The position numbers and the translations under genes are program-made. DNA of 64,000 nt, from IMG/VR virus record IMGVR_UViG_2225789004_000003, positions 1 to 64,000 of that record. The stretch is one strand, 5' to 3'. A model generated the notes under the pieces. The model worked only from the letters and a program-made list of their open reading frames with translations, was not told where the DNA came from and did no database searches. The first letter of the stretch is position 1; every line of letters begins with the position of its first letter. This document shows, in pieces, positions 1,512 through 36,542 of the stretch. This DNA is from a virus.

Positions 1512-1535
1512 TTTATTACTTCCTTTCTAAAGTAA

Positions 1536-1608
1536 CTGAAGCATCTAGACTCGAACTAGGAACTCTGGATTCAAAGTCCAATATCTTAATCATTTAAACT
1601 ATACTTCA
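1536..1608 (-). tRNA. tRNA-Gln (anticodon UUG)
   Basis: Cloverleaf by eye: 7-bp acceptor with U1-A72, anticodon loop CUUUGAA, T-loop TTCGAGT. Confidence 0.85.
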
Positions 1609-1615
1609 ATATAAA

Positions 1616-1686
1616 CGGGATGTAAAGGAGTCGAACCCTTACTTTTGGTTTTGGAGACCAACGTTCTACCATTAAACTAACATCCC
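1616..1686 (-). tRNA. tRNA-Trp (anticodon CCA)
   Basis: Acceptor GGGATGT/ACATCCC, D-arm GTTT..GAAC with GG, anticodon loop CUCCAAA, T-arm AGGGTTCGACTCCTT. Confidence 0.85.
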
Positions 1687-1766
1687 ACTTTCAACTTACT
1701 TCATTAACTTTTTAAGTCTATCGCGTATTCCAGTTTCGCCATACTAGCTTTTACATCACATCTTAT

Positions 1767-19405: not shown

Positions 19406-19429
19406 TGATTTAAATTCCTTTAAATAAAA

Positions 19430-19503
19430 TAGCGGGAGTAGGAGTCGAACCTACGATCTACAGGTTATGAGCCTATCGAGTTAAGCCACTACTCTATCCC
19501 GCA
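19430..19503 (-). tRNA. tRNA with CAU anticodon (elongator Met, or Ile2 if lysidinylated)
   Basis: D-arm GAGT..ACTC with GG, anticodon loop CUCAUAA, T-arm GTAGGTTCGACTCCTAC. Position 1-72 is a U-U mismatch. Confidence 0.8.
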
Positions 19504-19515
19504 ATATAACTTAAA

Positions 19516-22806: not shown

Positions 22807-25800
22807 CTAAGTTAATAATTCAGCATCTAAAGTTTGTAATCTTACATTAAATATATATTCCCCTCCAGCAGGTGCAGAACTTCCAGTTATGTTTATATTT
22901 GCGGCATCTGGATATGTACTAGCAATACTTGCACTCCATGGTGAACTTACTCCACTAATACTTGCAATTGTCGGTGTTCTGTGCATAGTAATTAGATAGT
23001 TTAATAATACAGGTAATGTTCTACTAGCTGATACTGGAATATAAACTCTAAAACATTGATTAGAGCTATAACCTTGAAAAAATCTCTGTGATTTAATTAC
23101 TTCATCATTATGATTAAAACTACACCAGCCTTCAAATTTATCTGTTTGTGTCAATTGAGCAAGTAATATAATAGAACTATTAGGAAATATAGTATGAAAA
23201 AATCCTGCACTATTAACTCCAAAATCAAATACTTCAGTTAATCCAGTCATTGGACTTGTATTATTATTTACTAATATATCATAAGCAGTTTTTGTTTTAG
23301 TAGCTGTTTTTATATTACTTAAAACAACTCCACCACTATAAGTAAATTCTATATATCTTACTGATAAAGTAAATTTTGTATTAGGAGGTAGAGCTGACAT
23401 ATAACGATCAAGATTAACTACTTCCTGTCTCATTTTTCTAGGATTAGAAGTAATATATGTATCAGGATTAGATGTATTATTGTTAGCTGAATTAGTAAAT
23501 ATCATTAATCCTGAATTACTAAATCCATTAGTAATTAAAGAATAATTCATGGCATGTCTATAATAATATGGTGAAGAAGATGATTCACGCCCTTTTTGAT
23601 ATTGCCATCTATCAGCACACATTGCCCAACCATTTACAGTTCCAGGAGTAGTTCTTCCTCTATTATAAATAGCAAAATTAGGATTATCTAAAAAATTACT
23701 GCCTTTAGTAGATGGAATATTTAATATATCATTTAGTTCATATGGTAAATCAATTAAAGTATTATTACTTCTATTACCAAGTATCACATTACCAGTTACT
23801 TCCAATACTTCAAAATCAAATATTGGAAAACCATTATTTTGATTATTAGAATCAATTATAAATGGATAGCCTAGAGTTTCAGTAAAAGATGGTAATTTCA
23901 TACTATTTAAACTCATCATAGTCCATGAAGAACTTGTTAATGAATTTTCAGTTGCAGAAAAATTATTACTTAATGTGCCTGAATTACTTATACTATTAGT
24001 TTCTAGTATGCCATATCCTTTATTACCATTATAAATATTCCATATATAACCTACATTATAACAATTATTAATATCAACATTTATAGATGTATTACCTGTA
24101 GATCTACAAATTATTCCTGCAGATATTTGACCTTCAACGTTACCAGTATTATAACAATTTACAAAATTACCTGAAGATGTGCCTGTTTCAGTAACTGATA
24201 TACCTGCGGATGCATCTGTATTAATATTACTGATATTAGTAATATTACCATGGTTAGCACAATTAGTAAAAGAATTTCTAACCCCTGAATTAGGTCTTGT
24301 TCCACAAAATCCACAAGCAGTTCCAGAATTAGCTTTTATAGTCAAATGTGTCGCACAATTAGTAAAAGTTTGACCAAAAGCACCATGGTTAAATCCCCAA
24401 GCTCCTTTAAGGCTTGAATGATTTTCATGTGATTCTATTAATCCTTTACCAAGAATCATATTTTTATAAACAGGATTAGACCCAGCCCATGTAAATGAAG
24501 CCCCCCAATCATGAATACCACCTTCAGGTTTTTTTATGGCAATACCTTTAATTATCTTATTATTACCATCAAACGTGTTACTTGTACCACCACCAAAAGG
24601 TTTCCAGCCTACGCCGTCATTATAACAAGGAGCTAAAGGGTTATCTTTCGTTATGTCCCAATCAGTATAATCATCATTTATACCTAAACCAATTGCACTA
24701 GTTAGATCTAAATGATTCATGATTTTTATACTACCTTGACCATAATAAATAGTAACATAATCAGCTAAATCTTTTGGAGTATAAATCAAATAAGGATTAG
24801 AATTTGATCCAGATCCAGACATACGAGATACCCATTCAGTATTATATTCAACATCAGGTAATGTAGAACTTGCCCATGATATTCCAATATCACCAATAGC
24901 TTTATCTGTTGTCCATAAACTTTTACCGTCACCAATAACTATTTTAGCTTTATTAATATCAGGAACTTGTGGAGATTCAAATGGAAATGATGGAAAACCA
25001 TTATTATAACTATCATTTCTAACAAACTCATCGCCTTCTGAATTTAACATATCTACAAATACTTGACTTTGCATATCAGTTTCATTCATCATAAACCACC
25101 TTGCAGGGTTTATATTATCAGCAGTTGAGCTTTGTAAACTTGAAAAACTATTTGTAACTGTTATTCCAGCACTTGAAGTATCACCAATAACGCCTCTATG
25201 GAATGAATAATTACCAGATGTTCCATATCTTACTATACCAGCGTTATAACAATTAATTAAAGTTGTTGGATTATTAGAATTATTAACTTCACCAAACATT
25301 CCACCAAATCTATAATTGTTATTGTGAGTAACTGTTCCAGTATTATAACAATTTTCTACAATAATTGTTCCAACAGTAGATGGATAAAGTGATCCTGCAA
25401 TTCCACCAACCCAACCACCTACACCAGTTACATTTCCATGATTAGCAATATTTTTAAATTTTCCTGATCCAAATGACACACAAATACCACCAACATAATT
25501 TGTTGTTGATACTATGTTTACGTGATTAGAAAAGTTTTCAAGAGTAGTTCCACCAGTAACTAAATATGCTAAACAACCGACTCTTTGTTGTGTTGATGTT
25601 ATTAATCCTTTATCAAATATTAAGTCATGAACAATTCCAGTTAACCACCCACCAAAAAATCCTGCATAGTAATCAGTATTTTTCATTAAAATATTTTTAA
25701 TTTTTTTATTATTACCATCAAGACTGCCAGCAAAACCAGTTGATATAGAATTACCAGATCCTACAGGTAGCCAACCTTTGCCTAAATTATATAATGGTGC

Positions 25801-28011
25801 TGATGGATTATCTAATGCTGTATTCCATGACATATAATCAGCATTAACTCCGAGTCCAATAGCTTCACCAAGATCAATATTGTTCATTAATTTATAATTA
25901 GCACCTAAATTATCTCTCATTTTATTTAAGTGATAAGGATGATAAATAAGATAAGGGTTAGATGCTGTCCCATTACCTTCAAAAGGTTCAACTATCCAAT
26001 CTGATACAAATGTTTCAATTTCAGATTTTTCAGCCCAAATAGCATCACCAACAGGTAATTTTTCCCATTGATTTATTGAATTTTTATTCCAAAATTTATC
26101 ATTATAAAATCTAATACCATGACTCCCATTTTCTGAAACAATCATAGATGTTACATGAGTTATAACATCCCAAGCTTTTAATTCAGTTTCCCAAATGTAA
26201 TGACCATCTCCAATAATTAAATTAGCATTAGTAGGTAATGGTGTTACAAAAAATTCATTAGGTAGAAATGGAAAACCACCATTTCTAAATTGTGAATCAT
26301 GTAAAAATGGAGACCCTAATAATGTTACAAATGCTTGACTTTGCATAGTAGCTTCATTTTGCATAGTCCAACGTTGAGGATTAGCAGTATCTGGAGTAGA
26401 TGTTATGTCTAAAGCATGACAATTAACAAGTAGTATAGTACCATAAGAATAATCACCAAGTATACCTCTACCACCACTAGTACTATTTCTTACTTGGATT
26501 AATCCAGTATTATAACAACTTTCAACAGTAGTTACTCCTGAACTCAAATTTCCTTCTCCAATTATACCTGCTGATCTATATCCTGATCCTGAAGATACTA
26601 TTCCCGTGTTATAACAGTTTCTAATAATGCAATTACCAGCGGATGTACTATAAACAGAACTCGTTATACCGCTTACCCAATTATTTCCAGATATATTTCC
26701 ATGATTAGCACACCTAATAAGGTTTCCAGCTCCCACAGACATACAAATACCACCAACATAACTTCTATTAGATGCTGTGGCATCTACATTAACATTATTA
26801 GAACAATCTTGAATAGTCCCATTCAACGTTAATAAATTAACTATAACACCCATTCTATCATTGCCTGGAGTTATATACCCTTTATCAAATATAAGGTTTT
26901 TAATTGTTCCACTAACATTTTGACCAAAGAAGCCAAAATTAGTTATAGTAGGTTTTGCTAAAAACCCTTTTATCCTTTTACCATTGCCATCAAAAACGCC
27001 CTTGAATCCATCATTTACACCTGCACCAGCTATAGATTCCCAACCTTTACCTGCATTATAACAAGGAGCTAATGGATCATCATTAGCAGGAAGCCAACCA
27101 CTATATGATGGACTTACACCTAAGCCAATAACTGAAGTTAAATCTATATTATTCATTAATTTATAATTAGCATTTAAATCATTTCTAGTTAAATCTAAAT
27201 CATAAGGAGTATAAATAAGATAAGGATCTAACTGTGTTCCTGATCCTTCTCTCCTATTAACCCATTCAGTATTATAAACAATAGCAGGAGTTGGTGCTTC
27301 ATTACCCCAAACAACTGATCCAGTTTCAAACGGTAAATTTTGCCAATAACCTTCATTACTTTTAGCTTGAAATAAAGATCCATTATGCCTAAAATTATGG
27401 ATGCCTAATTCAGAAGTAATACTTGATCCTATATGGTTAACTAAGTCATTTGATTTAGTTACTTGACTCGAATTGTAATTTGCTATTTTTATATTAGAAT
27501 CATCTATAAAAGCTATTGGAGCATAAGGTAAATTTCTTATTAAAGAGTATTCAAATGGAAACATAGGTGAAGTTTCAGTTAAACAGTATACTTTATCATC
27601 TAATATATCAAATATTTTATTAGTTGGTAAATCCAATATATTATCTAATACTGTTCCTTGCCATATACCACTACCAATATACTGTCTACTTGTTGAAAAT
27701 GTATTAGTTATGACAGTTGAAGTAACTGCTCCAAGATAGCTTATTGAATAAAACATATTAAAAGTAGTTAAAGGTTCAACTATTCCATCATAATACGAAT
27801 TATGAATAGTTAATACAGGTATAGCTGTTGATGAAGCTACACAATATAAACCGTAAGCATAATTACCTTTCATATATCCTATATTATAATTATTCTCTAA
27901 TACAGGAGATTGAACATTAGTAAACCTAGCATATCCTATTATGCCTGATACTCTTGTTCTAGTATTATTTGATATTATTTTACCGTTAAAACTACAATTT
28001 CTAATCGCCAT
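22807..28011 (-). CDS. Giant tail fibre / receptor-binding protein (about 1734 aa): partial GLUG module, three complete GLUG beta-helix modules, C-terminal binding domain
   Basis: Three repeats of GSGT..PYLIYTPYDL..YKLMNNIDL..FDGNGK.IK plus I.NC.N.G rungs plus NPQRW.M.NE..MQSQ.F...NGGFPF. ATG 28011 behind GAGG; the track start is TTG. Confidence 0.8.
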   Translation of the reverse strand: MAIRNCSFNGKIISNNTRTRVSGIIGYARFTNVQSPVLENNYNIGYMKGNYAYGLYCVASSTAIPVLTIHNSYYDGIVEPLTTFNMFYSISYLGAVTSTVITNTFSTSRQYIGSGIWQGTVLDNILDLPTNKIFDILDDKVYCLTETSPMFPFEYSLIRNLPYAPIAFIDDSNIKIANYNSSQVTKSNDLVNHIGSSITSELGIHNFRHNGSLFQAKSNEGYWQNLPFETGSVVWGNEAPTPAIVYNTEWVNRREGSGTQLDPYLIYTPYDLDLTRNDLNANYKLMNNIDLTSVIGLGVSPSYSGWLPANDDPLAPCYNAGKGWESIAGAGVNDGFKGVFDGNGKRIKGFLAKPTITNFGFFGQNVSGTIKNLIFDKGYITPGNDRMGVIVNLLTLNGTIQDCSNNVNVDATASNRSYVGGICMSVGAGNLIRCANHGNISGNNWVSGITSSVYSTSAGNCIIRNCYNTGIVSSGSGYRSAGIIGEGNLSSGVTTVESCYNTGLIQVRNSTSGGRGILGDYSYGTILLVNCHALDITSTPDTANPQRWTMQNEATMQSQAFVTLLGSPFLHDSQFRNGGFPFLPNEFFVTPLPTNANLIIGDGHYIWETELKAWDVITHVTSMIVSENGSHGIRFYNDKFWNKNSINQWEKLPVGDAIWAEKSEIETFVSDWIVEPFEGNGTASNPYLIYHPYHLNKMRDNLGANYKLMNNIDLGEAIGLGVNADYMSWNTALDNPSAPLYNLGKGWLPVGSGNSISTGFAGSLDGNNKKIKNILMKNTDYYAGFFGGWLTGIVHDLIFDKGLITSTQQRVGCLAYLVTGGTTLENFSNHVNIVSTTNYVGGICVSFGSGKFKNIANHGNVTGVGGWVGGIAGSLYPSTVGTIIVENCYNTGTVTHNNNYRFGGMFGEVNNSNNPTTLINCYNAGIVRYGTSGNYSFHRGVIGDTSSAGITVTNSFSSLQSSTADNINPARWFMMNETDMQSQVFVDMLNSEGDEFVRNDSYNNGFPSFPFESPQVPDINKAKIVIGDGKSLWTTDKAIGDIGISWASSTLPDVEYNTEWVSRMSGSGSNSNPYLIYTPKDLADYVTIYYGQGSIKIMNHLDLTSAIGLGINDDYTDWDITKDNPLAPCYNDGVGWKPFGGGTSNTFDGNNKIIKGIAIKKPEGGIHDWGASFTWAGSNPVYKNMILGKGLIESHENHSSLKGAWGFNHGAFGQTFTNCATHLTIKANSGTACGFCGTRPNSGVRNSFTNCANHGNITNISNINTDASAGISVTETGTSSGNFVNCYNTGNVEGQISAGIICRSTGNTSINVDINNCYNVGYIWNIYNGNKGYGILETNSISNSGTLSNNFSATENSLTSSSWTMMSLNSMKLPSFTETLGYPFIIDSNNQNNGFPIFDFEVLEVTGNVILGNRSNNTLIDLPYELNDILNIPSTKGSNFLDNPNFAIYNRGRTTPGTVNGWAMCADRWQYQKGRESSSSPYYYRHAMNYSLITNGFSNSGLMIFTNSANNNTSNPDTYITSNPRKMRQEVVNLDRYMSALPPNTKFTLSVRYIEFTYSGGVVLSNIKTATKTKTAYDILVNNNTSPMTGLTEVFDFGVNSAGFFHTIFPNSSIILLAQLTQTDKFEGWCSFNHNDEVIKSQRFFQGYSSNQCFRVYIPVSASRTLPVLLNYLITMHRTPTIASISGVSSPWSASIASTYPDAANINITGSSAPAGGEYIFNVRLQTLDAELLT
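23815..27264 (-). repeat. Three tandem protein-level modules of about 390-425 aa inside the giant fibre
   Basis: PYLIY-encoding patches at about 27225, 25950 and 24790. Each module ends with a GFP(F/S/I)F motif. Confidence 0.75.
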
Positions 28012-28031
28012 TTTTATTACCTCATTCAAAT

Positions 28032-29430: not shown

Positions 29431-29874
29431 CTACCGTTTTTTAAATTTAGTTTCAACCAAGTCAAATCTTTTATGTAAAGAACGAAGTGATTCATGAATA
29501 GATTTTTCTTCTTTTTCTAGATCATCTTGTCTAGTATGAATTCTTTCAATAGAGTGTTTATATTCTTTACGAAATTCTGAATTTTCTTTAGTAAGATCTC
29601 TCATTGCAGTATCTATACTACTAGCTTTAGTTACTTGTTCTTTTAAATCTTTTATTCGTTGAGTCCTATCTGAATCGTATTTCCAAGCTACTATAAGTAA
29701 TAAAACTCCAAATGCACTTTCCATTAGAGTTTTATATCCATTAGAATCTTTCATATGTGCCACGTTTAAATCAGCAGTATTAGCATAAATTTTACCAAAA
29801 GCGACTAGCAAAAAAAAGCACAAAAAGAACACCCAATAATATTTTTTGTAATGTATAATCTTTTTCAGTATCAT
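29431..29874 (-). CDS. Membrane protein with two TM helices and a long coiled coil (holin-like or exclusion-like)
   Basis: YYWVFFLCFFLLVAFGKIY and AFGVLLLIVAW, then a charged coiled-coil C-terminus. Confidence 0.5.
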   Translation of the reverse strand: MILKKIIHYKKYYWVFFLCFFLLVAFGKIYANTADLNVAHMKDSNGYKTLMESAFGVLLLIVAWKYDSDRTQRIKDLKEQVTKASSIDTAMRDLTKENSEFRKEYKHSIERIHTRQDDLEKEEKSIHESLRSLHKRFDLVETKFKKR

Positions 29875-29976
29875 CTTGTAAATCTTTTTTTACCCCCTCT
29901 AAATCCCCTGACTTTTTATCCCTTAATTTACTAAACTTACATTCATTTGTTAATTCCATACAACACCATCCCTTTA

Positions 29977-31380
29977 TTAATTTGACCAATAGCCTATAAC
30001 GCCACCACAGAAATTTTCATTACCTGTAGCAGAATTATGACCAACTATTGCACTTACTGATATATTTTCAATAGTTACATTCATTCCAATTGCATAGCCT
30101 ACTAATGCTCCTATGTAATGTGTTCCACTGTAATATGTGAATATAATATTAGTATTATCTAAAAATAAGTTTTTAAGAGTTGCAGGCTGTTGTATTCTAC
30201 CAAATATACCTGTTTCAGCAAGTGTATTAATTGGTGTAATTATAATTAATCCTTTAATTATTTTATAGTTAAAATCTACACTTCCAGTAAATGCTAATCC
30301 AGTTCCTGTTTTACCAATTGGAACAAAACCTTGACCTGAATTAAATAATGGAAATGATCCAATTAAGTTATTAAATGTAAAGTTACCATTTTCATCAATA
30401 TTATTTAACTCAATACCCATTAAATCAGTAAAATCTAAATTATTCATTAATTTATAATAAGCTGTTAAATTATTTCTTATATTATTAAAGTCATAAGGAG
30501 TATAAATAAGATAAGGATCACTAGCTGTGCCAGATCCTTCTCTTTTATCTACCCACTCATTATTAAAATCAAATTCTTTAATTTCTAATGATCCACCGCC
30601 ACCAGTTTGTATTTCAATCCATGTAGATCCATTGTAATATTGTAATTTATTTTGAAAGAATCTAATGCCGTGAATACCTGTTTCAGAATATATTTCACTA
30701 TCAAAATGATTCATTAAATCAGCATTAGTTATTAATGGACTTGAATTATCTAATGTGATGGTATTACTTTGTGACGTAATAGATCCTATTTCAATAGCGT
30801 TACTCCAACCAACTAATGTTCTAGGTGTTGGATTAGCATAAAAAGTTAGTTCTATAACTAATCTTGAAGTAATTTGTTCTTCTAAATTGGGATCAACTAT
30901 TTTAGATACTCCTGTATCTCTAAAAGCCGACTCTGTGCTTTCAATATTAAATGTATTATAAGAATTATTTCTTAATCCAAAATGATAAATAAGAGCATTA
31001 TCCTCGGTAAATACAGTTGTTCTAAAATGAGCATAAATTTTTGTATTATAATTTGAATTATGAGTATTCAAATTAATTTTTAAAGTAATTGGATCTATTT
31101 CGTTTATATTATATCTTAAATCATTATCCAATATGAAATACTTTAAACCATATATATTTAAAACATCTGTAGCATTATCAACTGTAAAGCCATAAGTATC
31201 TATTTTAAATATAGATTCACTAGGATCAGTTATTGTTTTAAATAAAAACTTCGATATAGATTCAACTATATTTGTTTGCATTACATTCATATCTGATGAA
31301 GATAATGCTTTATTAAATTCATAGTTAATTCTATGAACATTAGTTTTTATTTTTGTATATTCGTTAAAAAAGTTTGACAT
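29977..31380 (-). CDS. Tail fibre protein ending inside a GLUG module (467 aa)
   Basis: N-terminal 270 aa are paralogous to fibres 33387..36542 and 36563..38758. The GLUG module starts at GSGTASDPYLIYTPYDF but stops after about two rungs (..CGGVIGYWSN*). Confidence 0.75.
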   Translation of the reverse strand: MSNFFNEYTKIKTNVHRINYEFNKALSSSDMNVMQTNIVESISKFLFKTITDPSESIFKIDTYGFTVDNATDVLNIYGLKYFILDNDLRYNINEIDPITLKINLNTHNSNYNTKIYAHFRTTVFTEDNALIYHFGLRNNSYNTFNIESTESAFRDTGVSKIVDPNLEEQITSRLVIELTFYANPTPRTLVGWSNAIEIGSITSQSNTITLDNSSPLITNADLMNHFDSEIYSETGIHGIRFFQNKLQYYNGSTWIEIQTGGGGSLEIKEFDFNNEWVDKREGSGTASDPYLIYTPYDFNNIRNNLTAYYKLMNNLDFTDLMGIELNNIDENGNFTFNNLIGSFPLFNSGQGFVPIGKTGTGLAFTGSVDFNYKIIKGLIIITPINTLAETGIFGRIQQPATLKNLFLDNTNIIFTYYSGTHYIGALVGYAIGMNVTIENISVSAIVGHNSATGNENFCGGVIGYWSN

Positions 31381-31394
31381 ATAAAAATTCCACT

Positions 31395-31600
31395 ATTGAA
31401 AACTTATAAAAAGTAATACAACTTTTATGTTTCATTCCTTATTCATAGTATCCAATTTCATATTATTAAAATATTACTTTTGTTTGATATAACACTCCAA
31501 AGGCTTAAATTTCCGACTAGTGTATCGGTATAAATCAAATATTTTGTTATACTATTAATTGTTTTCCATACCTAGCTAAATTTAAACTTGCATTGTAATC
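31395..31600 (-). ncRNA. Predicted omega/reRNA region of the TnpB element
   Basis: By analogy with characterised TnpB loci, where the guide RNA overlaps the tnpB 3' end and the right end. Local hairpin CCGATACACTAGTCGG. Not verified. Confidence 0.3.
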
Positions 31601-32720
31601 TCTATCAAGTATATTACCACACTCACACTTAAATACTCTATTTTTAAGTTTTAAGTCCTTATTAATTATACCACAAATTGAGCATGTTTTACTTGATGGA
31701 TAAAATCTATTTACTTCTATAAACTTTATATTATTCCAATTACTTTTATATTGAAATTGTTTATTAAATTCATAGAAACATTGGTTTTGAATTGCTTTAG
31801 CTAAATGTCTATTTTTCATCATACCACTAACATTAAGATCTTCTAATACAATAAATTTTGGTTTTCGATTTACTATTTCAGAAGATACATTGTGTAAATA
31901 GTTATGACGAATATTTGATAACCAATGAACTACTTTTAAAAGTTGTTTTTCACTTTTTACAATATTACTTGTTTTACAATAGTTTATCCCTTTCTTATTT
32001 TTTAAATACTTTTTTGATATATTACGCTGTAACCTACGTTTTTTCTTTTCAATCTTTTTAACAGTTTGAGATTTATTAATATTTTTATAAACATTACCAT
32101 CTGAACATGTTGCTAAGTTTTTAATTCCAAAGTCTACTCCAATACCTTTATTAGTTGGTAAATCATTAGATTGTTCAAATTCAACTCCAACTGTTAAAAA
32201 CCAATTTAATCCATTAAATATAACTCTAGGATTAGTATACTTATAACCAATAGGGACTCTATCTCTTTCAGCTAACTTAATCCAATTTTGTTTTTGTTTA
32301 TTAGGTCTTTTACTGTTAGAAATTTTCTCTAGCTTAACATGAGTTGACGTAAATTCAATTTTTAAAATATCTACATAAAAACTAGGCTTACTTTTTCTTT
32401 TACTTTTATATTTCGGAAACTTAGCTTGCTTTTTAAAAAAATCTTTTATATGCCAAAACTGCATCTTTTATAGACTGTTTTGTAACATCATTACTAATAT
32501 TATTTAACCATTTATATTTAAACTCTTTCTTTAATTGTGTAAATATTTTACGTAAATCAATATCACTTACAAATTTATTTTCAGTTTTATAAATATTTTG
32601 TTCATAATCAATAGTCCAATTATAAGCAAATCTAGCTGATCCTGCCATTTGAAACAATTTTGTATTTTGTTTATTATTAGGATTAAGCATAATTTTAATT
32701 GTTTTGATCATCACTATCAT
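31547..32720 (-). CDS. tnpB: TnpB-like RNA-guided nuclease, read in two frames joined at a T7A5 run (32430..32441)
   Basis: RuvC D (IGVDFGIKN), E (FIVLEDLN), zinc finger CSICG..CECG and D (DRDYNASLN). The N-terminal 95-aa ORF ends ..AYKRFF* where the other frame continues KKQAKFPKYKSK. Confidence 0.75.
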
Positions 32721-32783
32721 CTCAATAAGTAAAATATACTATAAAATAATTAAAACTACTAAACTTGCTTTAAAATTCCCTTT

Positions 32784-33377
32784 TTAAAAAATTTGTTCCC
32801 AATCAGAATTTCCAGGTTCAGATTCATTTATATCTTTTAATGACTTATAAATTTTATTATAATATATTACTATATCATCTTTATCATAAGCATCTAATTC
32901 ACAAATTGGCTTTGTCCAAATATTGTATTCTTTTATAAAGCCTAATTTTCGATATATAGCAGAAACTTCATCAGGTTTTCTGTTATTATCTGATATATGA
33001 TCTTGTATTACCTCATATAATTGTATCTCATTATATCCATTTAGTCCATATGAAATAATATTACCTATTTCATATTTTTTATTTAATTCATAAATAGGAT
33101 ATAAGTTAGCAAATTCAATCTTTTCAGAATCAGTTAAATCTTTAGATATTTTATTTAATAATATTTGAATTAAATTATAAAACTGAATTGTTATATAACC
33201 TTTTGATTGATTATTAAATAATTCATTTACTGTATTAGAATTAACATAAGATCTTTTTATTTCATATTCATATTTATTTTCAGATAATTTTATTTCTGAA
33301 GATATTTCTACTTCATATTTAATATTATCTATCATTGTTATTGGCGATATTAATTTATAATCAAATATATATTTCAT
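32784..33377 (-). CDS. Fibre accessory protein with two CBM5/12-like aromatic motifs
   Basis: YEIGNIISYG...LYEVIQDH and YDKDDIVIYYNKIYKSLKDINESEPGNSDWEQIF resemble Y..GD.V.Y.G..Y.....P.....W. Confidence 0.4.
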   Translation of the reverse strand: MKYIFDYKLISPITMIDNIKYEVEISSEIKLSENKYEYEIKRSYVNSNTVNELFNNQSKGYITIQFYNLIQILLNKISKDLTDSEKIEFANLYPIYELNKKYEIGNIISYGLNGYNEIQLYEVIQDHISDNNRKPDEVSAIYRKLGFIKEYNIWTKPICELDAYDKDDIVIYYNKIYKSLKDINESEPGNSDWEQIF

Positions 33378-33386
33378 TTTTGTTCC

Positions 33387-36300
33387 TTATGAAGTTGTAT
33401 AATTCTCACAATCTACACCATTCCAAACACCTATTTGTAAAAAATATTCTGATGCAATTGCTGGTTGTATATTCGTTCTTCTTATCATATTAGGATTAAA
33501 ACTATTTATTCCTGAAATTGTTATATTTACTGTTTCTAAAACAGAAAAACTACCAGTTGGCATAAATGCCATAACAGGGTATAAACCTATTTCATTTACA
33601 AAAGATGTTACATTTTGACCTTGTATTTTTAAACCTTGTAATATAGCTTGTGGTGTCTGATGAACATAAAATCTATAACATTTTAAAGCCTCTACACCTC
33701 TATTAGTTGGAATAAATCCTGTAAATTTATTACCCATTTCTAATTTAACTTGTGATATGACCATTCCAGTAAATGCTTTTATACTAAATTTACCATTCCG
33801 AATACACCAAAAATTTTTATTATTACTATTAGTCCAATCTAAACCATGACCACATTTATCTAGAATATCCCATACACTAAAAGATCCAGGACTCCATAAA
33901 GTAGCTTCATGAATTGTTGAAGTGAATGATTGAATATAATAAGAAGATTCTTCATTATCATCATATATTAAATCTGAATAATTAATGTCATAAGGATGAT
34001 ATTTTACTGTCATAGTTATTGGAGCATGTATACTAAATCTTGATTCAATATTTCTAACTGTAGTTTCATCCCATTGTCTTAATAGTATAGGGTGCTGTTG
34101 TAATTGTGTCATTGCAGATGGATTTTCAAGTATAGGAGTTCCTGTAGAAGTCGAAGTTTGAAATAGATGTAATCCCCTATCAAGAACACGTTGCCTCTTA
34201 TAATAATTATTAGCAGGGTAAGGAGATATATTACCTCTAAATTCCATAGACTGCCACCTATCAGCTAAACATCTCATAGTAAGAGAAGTAACACCAGTTA
34301 ATGTAGTCCCACGTTGAGCTATCCTAAAATCAGAGTTTTCTAACAAATTAGGATTACTTACAGTTGTAATTATATCACTTAGTTTATAATTACTCTCATA
34401 AATAGTTCCTTCATTTTTATTACCAACTATAATAGGTAAATTATCTATGTTTATTATAGTAAATTCAAAATTAAGAAAAGGAAAATTATTGTTAACTTCT
34501 TCATTGAATTTAAATATAGTAGGATTAAGTTGATTAACAAATTCCTGACTTTGCATATCAACCTCATTCAGCATAGTCCAACGTTGAGGATTATTAGTAT
34601 CTGAAGTTGAGCTTCCTATGCTAGAGAAACAGTTAGTAATTGAAAAATTATTATTGTTATTAGAATTTACATAGTGAAATATACCTAAAGTAGGCGTGAG
34701 TACTGATCCATCTTGATTAATATCAATAGCTACTAATCCAACATTATAACAATTAACTATATTAACAGGAACTAATATAACATTTGCACTACTCATAATT
34801 CCAGATGGACGTGAACTAGCTGTAGTGTTATAACTAATAATATTTCCTGTATTATAACAATTTTCAATTAATTGGGGATTACCAGTTCCACTTACATTTG
34901 AATAAGTTATAATACCTGCAATAGATGTTGAGTTAGCTATTAAATTTCCATGATTAGAACAATTTAATATTGAACAATCTCCACTCGAAACTATACCTCC
35001 AATGCTACCTGTAGTAACTAAAGAGCCTATAAAATTAATATGATTAGAACAATTTTCAATTAAACTATTATAGTAAGCATATCTAGTAAATGACCCATAA
35101 CCTAAATTTAATATTGTATTCCTACAGTCAACTAATCCTTTATCTAATATTAAATTTTTAATTACTCCACCTACACCTAAATCATTAAATAATACACTAA
35201 ATGATGCAGAAGTTAAATTATATCGAGTTAATATATTTTTAATTTTCTTTCCATTGCCATCAAATACACCTTCAAATCTACCGTTCAATGAAAGCCCTTC
35301 CCAACCATTACCAGAATTATAAAGAGGAGCTGATGGGTTATCTAAACTTAAATTCCAATCTGTATAATCAATATTAGCTACCATACCAATAGCTGAACCT
35401 AGGTCAATATTATTAACTAATTTATAGTAAGCTGTTAAATTATTTTTAATTAAAGTTAAGTGATACGGATGAAAGATAAGATAAGGATCAGATTGAGTAC
35501 CAGAGCCTGATATAGGTTCAACTATCCAATCAGATACAAATTCACCTTCAGGTAATATTTTATCTCCCCATCTAACATCATTAGTTATATCATCAAGATT
35601 AGCTATTACAGTTCCATTAACTACCAGTCTATTATCATTATTAACTGTAAGTCCATGGACATTATCACTAGAAGTCTTTGCTATATGGTTATCAACTTTT
35701 GTTTCTAAAGCAGTTAAATCAATATCTAAAGCATTGATTAAAGCATATAAGTTATTTATATCAGTTTGACCTAAACTAATATCAATCCAAGTTCCATTGT
35801 AATATTGTAATTTATTATTATAAAATCTAAAACCATGAATACCAGATTCGGAATTAACTAATTCATTTATATGACTAGTAACTGTATCAAAGTCAACTAT
35901 AGGATTTTCTTGATTAAATATAAGAGTTCCAGGTGATTTTTCAATGACATTACCAATTAATTGTCCATTACTCCAATTATTACCTAAAACTTGTGGAGTA
36001 GCTGATGCACTTGCATAAAATGTTAATTCTATAACATTACGAGAAGTTACTTCTTCATTTAAATTAGAATCAATTATTTTAGTAGAGTCATAAGTTGGAT
36101 TCGATTCTATATTAAATGTATTATATGAATTATTTCTTAATCCATTAATATAAACATTTCCAGACTGATAAGTAAAATAAACATCTCTATAATGACAATA
36201 AATATTCCAACCATTTACTGGAATAGAGGTTATTGACCCTAATGATATTTTTAATAAATTTGATAAAAATGATCTAAAACAATACATTGCATTATTGTTT

Positions 36301-36542
36301 ATTAAAATAAACTTGAATTCAGGTATTTCTAAACTTACATTACTACCATTTAGAATTATTTGAGAATTAACAGATCTTGATCTAAAGTAATTAGTACCTT
36401 TATTATTAATTAAATATGTAGCTATATTATTATTAATAATAGATTGAGTAATATTTAGATCAGAGCTAGATACTGCCCTATTAAATTCATAGTTTATTCT
36501 ATGAACATTCGTATTTATGTTAGTATAATCATTATATGCCAT
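33387..36542 (-). CDS. Tail fibre / receptor-binding protein with one GLUG module (1051 aa)
   Basis: Shared N-terminus (NVHRINYEFNRAVSSSDLN), SESGIHGFRFY motif and a GLUG module (GSGTQSDPYLIFHPYHL...NPQRWTMLNEVDMQSQEF). C-terminus LENSDFRIAQRG...ADRWQ is homologous to the giant-fibre C-terminus. Confidence 0.8.
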   Translation of the reverse strand: MAYNDYTNINTNVHRINYEFNRAVSSSDLNITQSIINNNIATYLINNKGTNYFRSRSVNSQIILNGSNVSLEIPEFKFILINNNAMYCFRSFLSNLLKISLGSITSIPVNGWNIYCHYRDVYFTYQSGNVYINGLRNNSYNTFNIESNPTYDSTKIIDSNLNEEVTSRNVIELTFYASASATPQVLGNNWSNGQLIGNVIEKSPGTLIFNQENPIVDFDTVTSHINELVNSESGIHGFRFYNNKLQYYNGTWIDISLGQTDINNLYALINALDIDLTALETKVDNHIAKTSSDNVHGLTVNNDNRLVVNGTVIANLDDITNDVRWGDKILPEGEFVSDWIVEPISGSGTQSDPYLIFHPYHLTLIKNNLTAYYKLVNNIDLGSAIGMVANIDYTDWNLSLDNPSAPLYNSGNGWEGLSLNGRFEGVFDGNGKKIKNILTRYNLTSASFSVLFNDLGVGGVIKNLILDKGLVDCRNTILNLGYGSFTRYAYYNSLIENCSNHINFIGSLVTTGSIGGIVSSGDCSILNCSNHGNLIANSTSIAGIITYSNVSGTGNPQLIENCYNTGNIISYNTTASSRPSGIMSSANVILVPVNIVNCYNVGLVAIDINQDGSVLTPTLGIFHYVNSNNNNNFSITNCFSSIGSSTSDTNNPQRWTMLNEVDMQSQEFVNQLNPTIFKFNEEVNNNFPFLNFEFTIINIDNLPIIVGNKNEGTIYESNYKLSDIITTVSNPNLLENSDFRIAQRGTTLTGVTSLTMRCLADRWQSMEFRGNISPYPANNYYKRQRVLDRGLHLFQTSTSTGTPILENPSAMTQLQQHPILLRQWDETTVRNIESRFSIHAPITMTVKYHPYDINYSDLIYDDNEESSYYIQSFTSTIHEATLWSPGSFSVWDILDKCGHGLDWTNSNNKNFWCIRNGKFSIKAFTGMVISQVKLEMGNKFTGFIPTNRGVEALKCYRFYVHQTPQAILQGLKIQGQNVTSFVNEIGLYPVMAFMPTGSFSVLETVNITISGINSFNPNMIRRTNIQPAIASEYFLQIGVWNGVDCENYTTS

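Follow-up and report, generated by a model that had tools for sequence, protein, structure and literature searches.

The locus analyzed here raises the question of whether a nuclease gene inside a phage is expressed through a regulated frameshift or has simply been broken. In the window (i.e., the whole stretch of 64,000 nucleotides of viral DNA that was analyzed), we found a minus-strand TnpB frame of 390 codons that is broken exactly at a T7A5 run (32441..32430). The original prediction for this site had named regulated expression as one of three possibilities, next to a sequencing error and a fresh pseudogene, and had likened the geometry to that of the prfB +1 frameshift. In light of the comparisons below, the break looks like an ordinary mutation or a sequencing error, not a regulatory device. 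The explanation that we favor, with moderate confidence, is a recent one-base expansion through unprogrammed replication slippage in a solo IS607 TnpB.

A split TnpB gene of the IS607 family

The element and its two neighboring genes are on the minus strand. The N-terminal TnpB frame (32433..32720; HTH/REC part, residues 1-95) was delimited by the ORF list, Pfam, and alignment. This ORF (32720..32433) encodes 95 aa with ..AYKRFF as the last residues, followed by TAA at 32435..32433; by homology, TnpB likely starts at the ATG at 32711 (MIKTIK..). The C-terminal frame (31547..32440), which is +1 relative to the N-terminal part, runs on as ..FFKKQAKFPKYKSK.. until the stop TAA at 31549..31547. 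The T7A5 run (32430..32441; mRNA UUUUUUUAAAAA), recognized by sequence and alignment, is composed of U7 at 32441..32435 and A5 at 32434..32430. In the homolog alignment, the T6 version encodes an invariant Phe94-Phe95-Lys96, and because the join coincides with these residues, the indel is placed inside the T run.

Although the +1 break at T7 interrupts the tnpB ORF, deletion of one T yields a 390-aa protein that contains the Pfam domains HTH_OrfB_IS605, OrfB_IS605, and Cas12f1-like_TNB (E = 1e-11, 5e-16, and 7e-21, respectively; all pass the Pfam cut-offs) and aligns end to end with intact homologs at 64-69% identity. The predictions that the ORF is broken exactly at U7A5 and that the downstream frame is the one expected for TnpB were thus both correct. 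The RuvC catalytic residues D196, E293, and D372, which align to D194/E290/D371 of ISFba1 and are invariant in the homolog alignment, are present, as are the zinc-ribbon residues C346/C349/C365/C367, in agreement with the expectation that both the catalytic site and the zinc finger are intact. The remaining 390 codons have zero further stops or indels and keep every family-invariant residue, and the GC3 of the gene (0.129) is the same as that of the phage genes. Of 170 highly conserved columns, the window protein departs from the consensus at 14, the most in the set. This could reflect relaxed selection, although the substitutions are conservative ones and the window sequence is the outgroup of the set.

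The element is an IS607-family TnpB with a RAGATH-18-derived guide RNA, a known and characterized family that uses an AGGAG or GAGGG TAM beside its left end (Ren et al., 2024, Cell Res; PMC11061315). The best match among solved structures is PDB 8IAZ (ISFba1 IS607 TnpB; E = 2e-73), whereas 8H1J and 8BF8 match far more weakly (E about 1e-32). An IS607 serine-recombinase tnpA lies directly upstream of tnpB in at least 27 of the 80 relatives, and the partner family is IS607 (serine-recombinase), not IS605-type. TnpB proteins of the IS607/RAGATH-18 family have about 330-433 aa, and tnpA is found upstream in about 80% of the loci (PMC11061315). The window copy is a solo copy without tnpA, as had been predicted: no TnpA-like sequence was found across the 64 kb (tblastn best E = 8.9), and the gap between the neighboring ORF and tnpB is only 63 nt.

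Several other identities were considered and rejected. An IStron is inconsistent with the Rfam scans, which returned no intron family, and with the presence of only 63 nt upstream of tnpB. A TldR is inconsistent with the intact catalytic triad and zinc ribbon. Stop-codon reassignment was rejected because the upstream frame meets many more TAAs shortly downstream. An N-terminally truncated product from the ATG at 32464 was rejected because this start has no ribosome-binding site and the product would miss the REC/TAM-reading part.

Guide RNA and insertion site

A RAGATH-18 motif, the core of the reRNA/omega-RNA scaffold, was identified at 31435..31503. The covariance-model search that had been suggested for the guide RNA matched Rfam RF03064 at 31503..31435 with 68.4 bits (gathering score 44.9; E = 1.5e-11 for the whole window), and RAGATH-18 sits after TnpB in 19 of 20 relatives. 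On its 5' side, a conserved guide-RNA flank (31504..31534) with the hairpin ACCGATACACTAGTCGG was delimited by conservation and covariation, and a weaker covarying stem may reach about 31560, inside the end of the ORF. In ISFba1, the 5' flank of the reRNA is 37 nt long and begins 13 nt past tnpB (PMC11061315). On the 3' side, the conserved scaffold flank and the right end of the element (31390..31434) include a terminal hairpin (ATAAAAGTT/ACTTTTTAT) and end with ..TTTTCAATAGTGG; when flanks were compared with 18 relatives, conservation ceases past ..ACGG / GTGG, at 31390. Covariation was observed for 22 of the 38 scaffold pairs, and the window retains 35 of the 38 consensus pairs; judging from these patterns, the guide-RNA scaffold appears intact.

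Given the position of the right end, the guide-equivalent flanking DNA corresponds to the next 20 nt (31370..31389; AATTTTTATATGTCAAACTT), which occurs only once in the window and contains the ATG of the fiber gene (31380..31378). The optimal guide length reported for ISFba1 is likewise 20 nt (PMC11061315). The prediction that about 150 nt downstream of the ORF hold the guide-RNA scaffold and the guide, within an interval of 31395-32783, was only partly borne out. The scaffold is there, as indicated by RAGATH-18 with its conserved flanks, but it ends at 31390 rather than 31395, and the guide (31389..31370) lies outside this interval and overlaps the fiber ATG.

The downstream gene (29977..31380) encodes a 467-aa tail-fiber-like protein that is a paralog of the 1051-aa protein encoded at 33387..36542 (41% identity over 300 aa), and the PHROG tail-fiber match of the latter is weak. 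The predicted adjacency of element and fiber gene is correct, as the fiber ATG is found 9 nt beyond the right end. The idea that the element lies between receptor-binding genes is plausible, based on weak matches and paralogy. The upstream neighbor (32784..33377; 197-aa ORF in the ORF list) has its stop TAA (32786..32784) directly before AAAGGG. This 197-aa protein is a database orphan, with itself as the sole match among 5.8 billion proteins, and its only Pfam match is a sub-threshold one to CBM_5_12.

The motif AAAGGG (32778..32783) is a Shine-Dalgarno-like, AG-rich left flank located 57 nt upstream of the ORF. Matching left flanks are found in L026, L030, and L012, among other relatives, and the left flanks of 16 relatives terminate in AGG/GAGG/AAAGG. 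The repeat GGAATTTT was found at both element junctions, and AAAGGG probably represents both the former ribosome-binding site of the fiber gene and a TAM-like motif. The 57-nt leader between this flank and the TnpB ORF (32721..32777) has no recognizable left end, tnpA remnant, or convincing promoter. When the 72 nt upstream of tnpB were compared with the left ends of six relatives for an IS607 left end, the local alignments did not exceed those of shuffles (z -0.5 to +0.9), and the promoter/terminator scan returned sites that were not above shuffles. The left boundary is resolvable only to 32721..32783, and the copy, with no left end recognizable, may long have been unable to move.

A comparison with relatives lacking the insert had been proposed for defining the ends, but such relatives were not found, either in IMG/VR by the flanking proteins, in the 5.8-billion-protein set by the upstream protein, or in JGI metagenomes by the exact T6/T7 pattern or alignment of the fiber N-terminus. 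In all collections searched, both are singletons, the phage as well as the element.

Among the relatives, a start codon is located within 15 nt past the right end at 33 of 54 distinct junctions, compared with 12% of random positions. This TnpB family, with its Shine-Dalgarno-like TAM, is usually placed between a ribosome-binding site and a start codon. Such placement would explain the persistence of these elements in tightly packed phage operons, and this side observation may be the more useful one.

Frame conservation and the origin of the extra T

From the alignments, the frameshift does not appear to be conserved. All of the approximately 220 homologous loci are in frame at the T-run site, including 80 of 80 viral relatives, which show TTY TTY variation at the Phe codons. 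The best 119 protein matches are full length. Among 140 matches to the nucleotide pattern (20 viral and 120 genomic), none has the frameshift, and T7 occurs only where the preceding codon ends in T. The relatives L026 and L028 read AGATTTTTTAAAAAGCAA (AGA TTT TTT AAA AAG CAA), which is the window sequence minus one T.

In the one-base expansion that we favor, the extra T would have arisen in a T6 tract that merely coded for the conserved Phe-Phe of an FFK motif; these codons became a homopolymer because of the extreme AT bias of the genome (GC3 13%). We infer that the DNA truly carries the extra T and, as no other decay was found in the gene or the RNA, that the change is recent. The phage is myovirus-like and AT-rich, with a genome of roughly 158 kb, and the element sits in its late structural operon, probably inserted between the Shine-Dalgarno-like AAAGGG, which would also serve as the family TAM, and the start codon of the co-oriented fiber paralog. 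The predicted insert-free junction reads ..TTTTTTAAAAAGGGAATTTTTATATGTCAAAC.., and an intact nuclease-RNA complex would be expected to cut uninterrupted copies of this junction (AAGGG followed by AATTTTTATATGTCAAACTT). Such cleavage could promote retention of the element and, putatively, homing in mixed infections. With the frame broken, full-length protein would be made at most in trace amounts, via incidental slippage of the polymerase or the ribosome.

A sequencing or assembly artifact is a possible but less probable explanation. The true sequence would then have T6 and encode a plain, intact 390-codon TnpB, such that the element would be a functional solo TnpB/reRNA unit. This would fit the location of the break in a homopolymer, which is a classic place for indel errors, the restoration of all family-invariant residues by a single deletion, the exact T6 form of the same 18-mer in L026 and L028, the intact guide RNA, and the status of the contig as a singleton with older IMG-style annotation. 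However, each of the 12 remaining A/T runs with 7-9 bases that lie within long ORFs keeps the frame, T8 and T9 runs among them, and a scan of all runs of at least six bases in the 64 kb found no second homology-supported broken gene. Furthermore, consensus errors at 7-mers are uncommon given adequate short-read coverage. In the indel scan for ORF merging, three other candidates were ordinary gene junctions. A second frameshift at a T8 run (~29815-29822), where a 55-aa ORF and a 147-aa ORF overlap, was also rejected because the sole homolog (P0123; 149 aa) has the 147-aa architecture.

The expansion could also be one state of an on/off switch at the DNA level, but we consider this improbable. 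In this scenario, T6/T7 would be a phase-variable contingency locus with both alleles in the population, and the assembly would show the majority "off" state. The change is reversible in one step, the element has no other decay, and homopolymers of 6-7 bases are hotspots of replication slippage, yet known contingency tracts switch at far higher rates than tracts of 7 bases. Homopolymer replication slippage has been discussed previously (PMC1088944). None of the approximately 114 T6 sites in relatives is in the T7 state; switching would therefore be rare at best.

Regulated recoding, which would make T7A5 a functional, lineage-specific throttle yielding little full-length nuclease through either the loss of one U via RNA polymerase slippage or a +1 or -2 ribosomal shift on UUU UUU UAA, is in our assessment very unlikely. 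Such a throttle would keep a potentially self-damaging nuclease off by default in a strongly transcribed late operon, and a small amount of TnpB would suffice to cleave competitors without the insert at the start of the fiber gene in co-infection. The predicted geometry is correct: the frame change is +1, the A site holds a stop codon, and tRNA-Phe re-pairs perfectly from UUU to UUU in the +1 frame or in the -2 frame. Apart from the break, neither the gene nor the RNA shows damage, as would be expected just as much of an intact gene (T6) as of a recoding site that is tolerated. Slippage is used by IS elements (PMC1088944), and the G7 "savior indel" of HSV thymidine kinase provides a case of low-level compensatory frameshifting on a 7-base run (PMC5009743). 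Nevertheless, the shift is absent from all of the approximately 220 homologous sites, where relatives vary synonymously at the Phe codons. No Shine-Dalgarno-like stimulator was found upstream of T7, where the sequence is GGCAUAUAAAAGA; the stop is UAA followed by A, which is not a weak context; and no downstream structure was detected past T7 (MFE -6.9 kcal/mol, z = +0.6). The 7-base run is also shorter than the runs of 8-9 bases for which productive transcriptional slippage has been documented (PMC1088944), and relatives have mixtures of TTC and TTT at this position, such that slipperiness is not conserved. No TnpB recoding is described in the titles and abstracts of literature naming TnpB and frameshifting or in PMC2853527. 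Consequently, regulated expression of the prfB type is not supported.

Implications and comparison with known systems

The immediate consequence is for annotation, which should treat both ORFs as one frameshifted IS607 TnpB gene and include the RAGATH-18 reRNA as a feature. The locus also illustrates cleanly that an extreme AT bias can convert a conserved Phe-Phe-Lys-Lys motif into a vulnerable homopolymer. TnpB recoding would constitute something new only on condition that the break is genuine and is productively bypassed.

The closest known systems are the ISFba1-type IS607 elements (PMC11061315). The shared characters include a TnpB of about 390 aa with an HTH/REC part, RuvC D-E-D residues, and a zinc ribbon; a RAGATH-18 motif that directly follows the ORF without overlapping it and is bordered by conserved 5' and 3' flanks; a guide that corresponds to the DNA just beyond the right end; and an AG-rich motif at the left flank. 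The ISFba1-type family is centered on low-GC Firmicutes, and about 20% of its loci are without tnpA, like the copy in the window. In contrast to ISFba1, the window ORF is split by an additional T, the left end is not recognizable, the 3' flank is 45 nt rather than 64 nt, and the copy is located in a phage late operon. The two TnpB proteins are about 45% identical and thus belong to different clusters, and the window flank AAAGG(G) is not exactly the AGGAG or GAGGG of the family TAM. Compared with the TnpB-omegaRNA systems of ISDra2 and other IS200/IS605 elements, both types have a RuvC nuclease guided by RNA from the right-end flanking DNA, and both are presumably retained by cutting empty sites beside the TAM. 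However, in IS605 elements the transposase is of the Y1 type, the TAMs are rich in T (TTGAT), and the omega-RNA and the 3' end of tnpB overlap, whereas the window element has a serine-recombinase IS607 partner family, an AG-rich TAM-like motif, and an RNA outside the ORF.

With regard to the break, the +1 frameshift of prfB (RF2) similarly relies on a P-site codon that can re-pair in +1 (CUU U / UUU U) while a stop codon occupies the A site. What sets prfB apart is a conserved Shine-Dalgarno-like stimulator, placed 3 nt upstream, together with a UGA-C stop that is weak and conservation deep into the phylogeny; the window has none of these. The slippage genes of IS elements (A9/A8 runs; Baranov et al., 2005, PMC1088944) and the G7 run of HSV TK (PMC5009743) also have a homopolymer that joins two overlapping frames, and by analogy a little corrected product could conceivably be made here. 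In the window, the run has only 7 bases, and homologs preserve neither its length nor the layout with two ORFs; any leaky full-length expression would be incidental, not selected.

TnpB-only elements have also been found in other phages. The Campylobacter phages CP220 and CPt10, which are large and lytic, carry ISCaje1-3 (PMC2853527), and the "mobile element protein" of Staphylococcus phage phiSA12 is another TnpB-only case. All of these copies are annotated as intact, and those of the Campylobacter phages are of the IS200/IS605 type, while the phiSA12 copy shares 74.5% DNA identity with the window over 568 nt.

Reading frames of tnpB and conservation of the break

The tnpB gene is split between two frames on the minus strand, and both the minus-strand reading and the ORF listing bear out the original prediction on this point. 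The N-terminal ORF (32720..32433, minus strand, 95 codons) ends in ..AYKRFF-TAA, and the C-terminal frame, located one base downstream, continues as FFKKQAKFPKYKSK.. to a stop codon at 31549..31547 (minus strand). The two frames meet at a T7 tract (32441..32435) followed by A5 (32434..32430). Removal of one T yields a 390-aa protein with the Pfam domains HTH_OrfB_IS605, OrfB_IS605, and Cas12f1-like_TNB. This repaired protein aligns over its full length with 17 intact homologs (64-69% identity), and the join of the two frames corresponds to the invariant F94-F95-K96. The predicted integrity of the nuclease was also supported: D196, E293, and D372 of the RuvC domain match D194/E290/D371 of ISFba1 TnpB, and the CxxC..CxC zinc ribbon is kept. 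The protein departs from the consensus at 14 of 170 highly conserved columns, the most in the set, from which no conclusion is drawn because the changes are conservative and the window sequence is the outgroup. No TnpA-like sequence was found within the 64-kb window, and this is the only TnpB copy in it.

A scan of the protein alignment against IMG/VR gave 146 relatives, 80 of which were kept. The site is in frame in all 80 of these viral relatives, with Phe-Phe encoded as TTC TTC, TTT TTC, TTC TTT, or TTT TTT; two of them (L026 and L028) read AGA TTT TTT AAA AAG CAA, which is the window sequence minus one T. A degenerate DNA pattern, anchored on at least six T and on the conserved FPKFK motif, found no frameshifted site among 20 viral and at least 120 genomic matches, and T7 occurs only after a codon ending in T in the matches listed. 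The other protein matches listed are all full length (119/119). Conservation is the test of programming, and, judged from the sequences compared, the frame break fails it. Given that the relatives are in frame, the T tract represents ordinary coding sequence for the conserved FFK(K) motif, which is a homopolymer here because synonymous positions are nearly all A/T (GC3 of 0.129 in tnpB and 0.08-0.14 in phage genes).

Cause of the frame break

A recent unprogrammed mutation is, by a modest degree of belief, the probable cause of the break. The tnpB gene is otherwise free of stops and indels across 390 codons in a 27%-GC genome, the repaired TnpB retains all family-invariant residues, and the guide RNA is intact; the break, if real, is therefore recent. 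That the gene is actually intact and the extra T an assembly error is possible but doubtful. Among the 16 A/T runs of at least 7 in the window, 13 lie inside long ORFs, and the T7 of tnpB is the sole frame breaker, whereas the reading frame is preserved across the other 12, T8 and T9 runs among them. Moreover, a search for ORF-merging indels at all runs of at least 6 in the window found no other homology-supported case. These patterns mildly favor a real change over an artifact.

One further candidate was rejected. Two overlapping ORFs (29792..29989 and 29431..29874, minus strand) span a T8 run, GTGCTTTTTTTTGCTAG, near 29820, and a one-T deletion would fuse them. The sole homolog (P0123, 149 aa, 34% identity) corresponds only to the downstream ORF, and the overlap is therefore probably no frameshift. 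By rough arithmetic, long A/T runs are rare for a 26.8%-GC window (16 of at least 7, compared with approximately 70 expected from base composition), which is consistent with slippery tracts being selected against in coding sequence.

Switching of the tract between T6 and T7 at the DNA level is very improbable, and regulated recoding, which the original prediction had raised, is the least probable explanation and was not supported: the site is unconserved among the 80 viral relatives and the pattern matches, no Shine-Dalgarno-like motif occurs in the sequence preceding it (GGCAUAUAAAAGA), the 93 nt downstream have no more folding potential than shuffled sequences (-6.9 kcal/mol, z = +0.6), and the run has only 7 bases, whereas productive bacterial transcriptional slippage is documented at runs of 8-9 (PMC1088944). 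The stop at the break is UAA followed by A. TnpB recoding was not found in titles and abstracts of papers that mention both TnpB and frameshifting, and a study reporting solo TnpB elements from Campylobacter phages contains no discussion of TnpB frameshifting (PMC2853527).

Guide RNA, element ends, and insertion site

Downstream of tnpB and on the same strand, a covariance-model search identified RAGATH-18 (RF03064) at 31503..31435, with 68.4 bits in the Rfam scan (gathering score 44.9). This motif is equally distant 3' of tnpB in 19 of the 20 relatives tested. In an alignment of the window with 18 relatives, the conserved stretch begins approximately 13 nt past the tnpB stop, spans RAGATH-18 and a terminal hairpin, and stops sharply past ..TTTTCAGTAACGG (..TTTTCAATAGTGG in the window, last base 31390). 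The sequence beyond is unrelated from locus to locus, as expected for a guide. RNAalifold predicted 38 pairs, with compensatory changes in 22; the window RNA retains 35 of these (29-38 in relatives). The proposed scaffold of approximately 150 nt was thus recovered, but the guide lies outside the interval originally assigned to it: the guide-equivalent DNA, AATTTTTATATGTCAAACTT, is at 31389..31370 (minus strand), occurs once in the window, and includes the fiber gene ATG (31380..31378).

In tnpA-carrying relatives, the left end starts past an AG-rich flank (AAGGAGG, GCGAGGG, or AAAGG), consistent with published TAMs. The window has AAAGGG (32783..32778, minus strand) directly after the stop codon of the 197-aa ORF, and the 57 nt past it have no detectable similarity to the left end of any relative compared. 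Both junctions share the octamer GGAATTTT. Joined without the element, the flanks read TAAAAAGGGAATTTTTATATG, in which a stop codon is followed by AAGGGA (Shine-Dalgarno-like), 8 nt of spacer, and the fiber ATG; this sequence closely resembles the neighboring natural junction TAAGGAACAAAAATG. We infer from these sequences that the element was placed between the ribosome-binding site and start codon of the fiber gene.

Such a gap is a typical site for the family. A start codon, required to open a same-strand ORF of at least 60 aa, lies within 15 nt past the right end in 33 of 54 distinct junctions of viral relatives, compared with 12% of random positions. Across L001-L080 and the window (32778..32783, 31378..31390), the usual location of these elements is just past an AG-rich flank that resembles a Shine-Dalgarno sequence (their TAM) and just ahead of the start codon of a gene in the same orientation. 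In this family, the terminal ..CGG of the right end may partly rebuild the ribosome-binding site. Such placement was not found stated in a full-text literature search on IS607 TnpB and Shine-Dalgarno or in a term search of an IStron preprint.

Several relatives carry other features. L026 (2860-3005) has a solo TnpB with a full left end and a perfect TTGACA-17-TATAAT promoter; its first approximately 13 tnpA codons (MKYHSIHEFSKLI) are retained and fused just upstream of tnpB, which gives a snapshot of solo copies arising by internal tnpA deletion. L023 has two right-end motifs (2995 and 4352), and another TnpB ORF (MIKTIR.., 393 aa) starts 8 nt past the first; one element thus appears to occupy the ribosome-binding site of a second, making the copies tandem or nested. 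In L002 (1172-1392), a HEARO RNA (128.6 bits), the RNA of IscB-type elements, lies approximately 1.6 kb upstream of an IS607 TnpB, such that two different RNA-guided nuclease elements adjoin in one phage contig. In L037 (1703-2848), a 167-kb viral contig, at least seven tRNA genes are arrayed directly upstream of the TnpB element.

Phage context and family assignment

The window is phage DNA, as indicated by portal and terminase matches, from a 158,074-bp contig (JGI/ENA). The portal is approximately 32% identical to those of the large Firmicute myoviruses Listeria LIS04 and Bacillus SP-15, and three tRNA genes (Gln-TTG, Trp-CCA, and Met-CAT) are found at 1535..1687 and 19429..19504 (minus strand). 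From 19 kb to 64 kb, nearly all genes are on the minus strand. The element is co-oriented with the operon, a promoter scan found no convincing promoter of its own, and it is probably transcribed by read-through.

The flanking 1051-aa (33387..36542) and 467-aa (29977..31380) proteins share 41% identity across the first 300 residues, and the former has a weak PHROG tail-fiber match. Between these paralogs, the 197-aa ORF (32784..33377) is an orphan that matches only itself among 5.8 billion proteins, with a sub-threshold CBM_5_12 match near the C-terminus. The flanking genes are thus tail-fiber-like, which makes the predicted insertion between receptor-binding genes plausible. The 467-aa protein ends abruptly (..CGGVIGYWSN) soon past its first GSGT.SDPYLIYTPYD module, which occurs three times in a 1740-aa protein (22807..28029); the 467-aa gene may be a truncated paralog.

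The closest solved structure to the window protein is ISFba1 TnpB (8IAZ, E = 2e-73; PMC11061315), and at least 27 of the 80 relatives have a MerR-HTH serine-recombinase tnpA directly 5' of tnpB, which is the IS607 architecture. The IS607 TnpBs characterized with it are approximately 390 aa and use RAGATH-18-derived "reRNA" guides located entirely outside the ORF, with a TAM of 5'-AGGAG or 5'-GAGGG and an optimal guide of 20 nt; tnpA is missing from approximately 20% of such loci (Ren et al., 2024; PMC11061315). The window element belongs to this family. It is a solo IS607 TnpB/reRNA unit with an intact right end, a degenerate left end, and a nuclease gene broken by one extra T.
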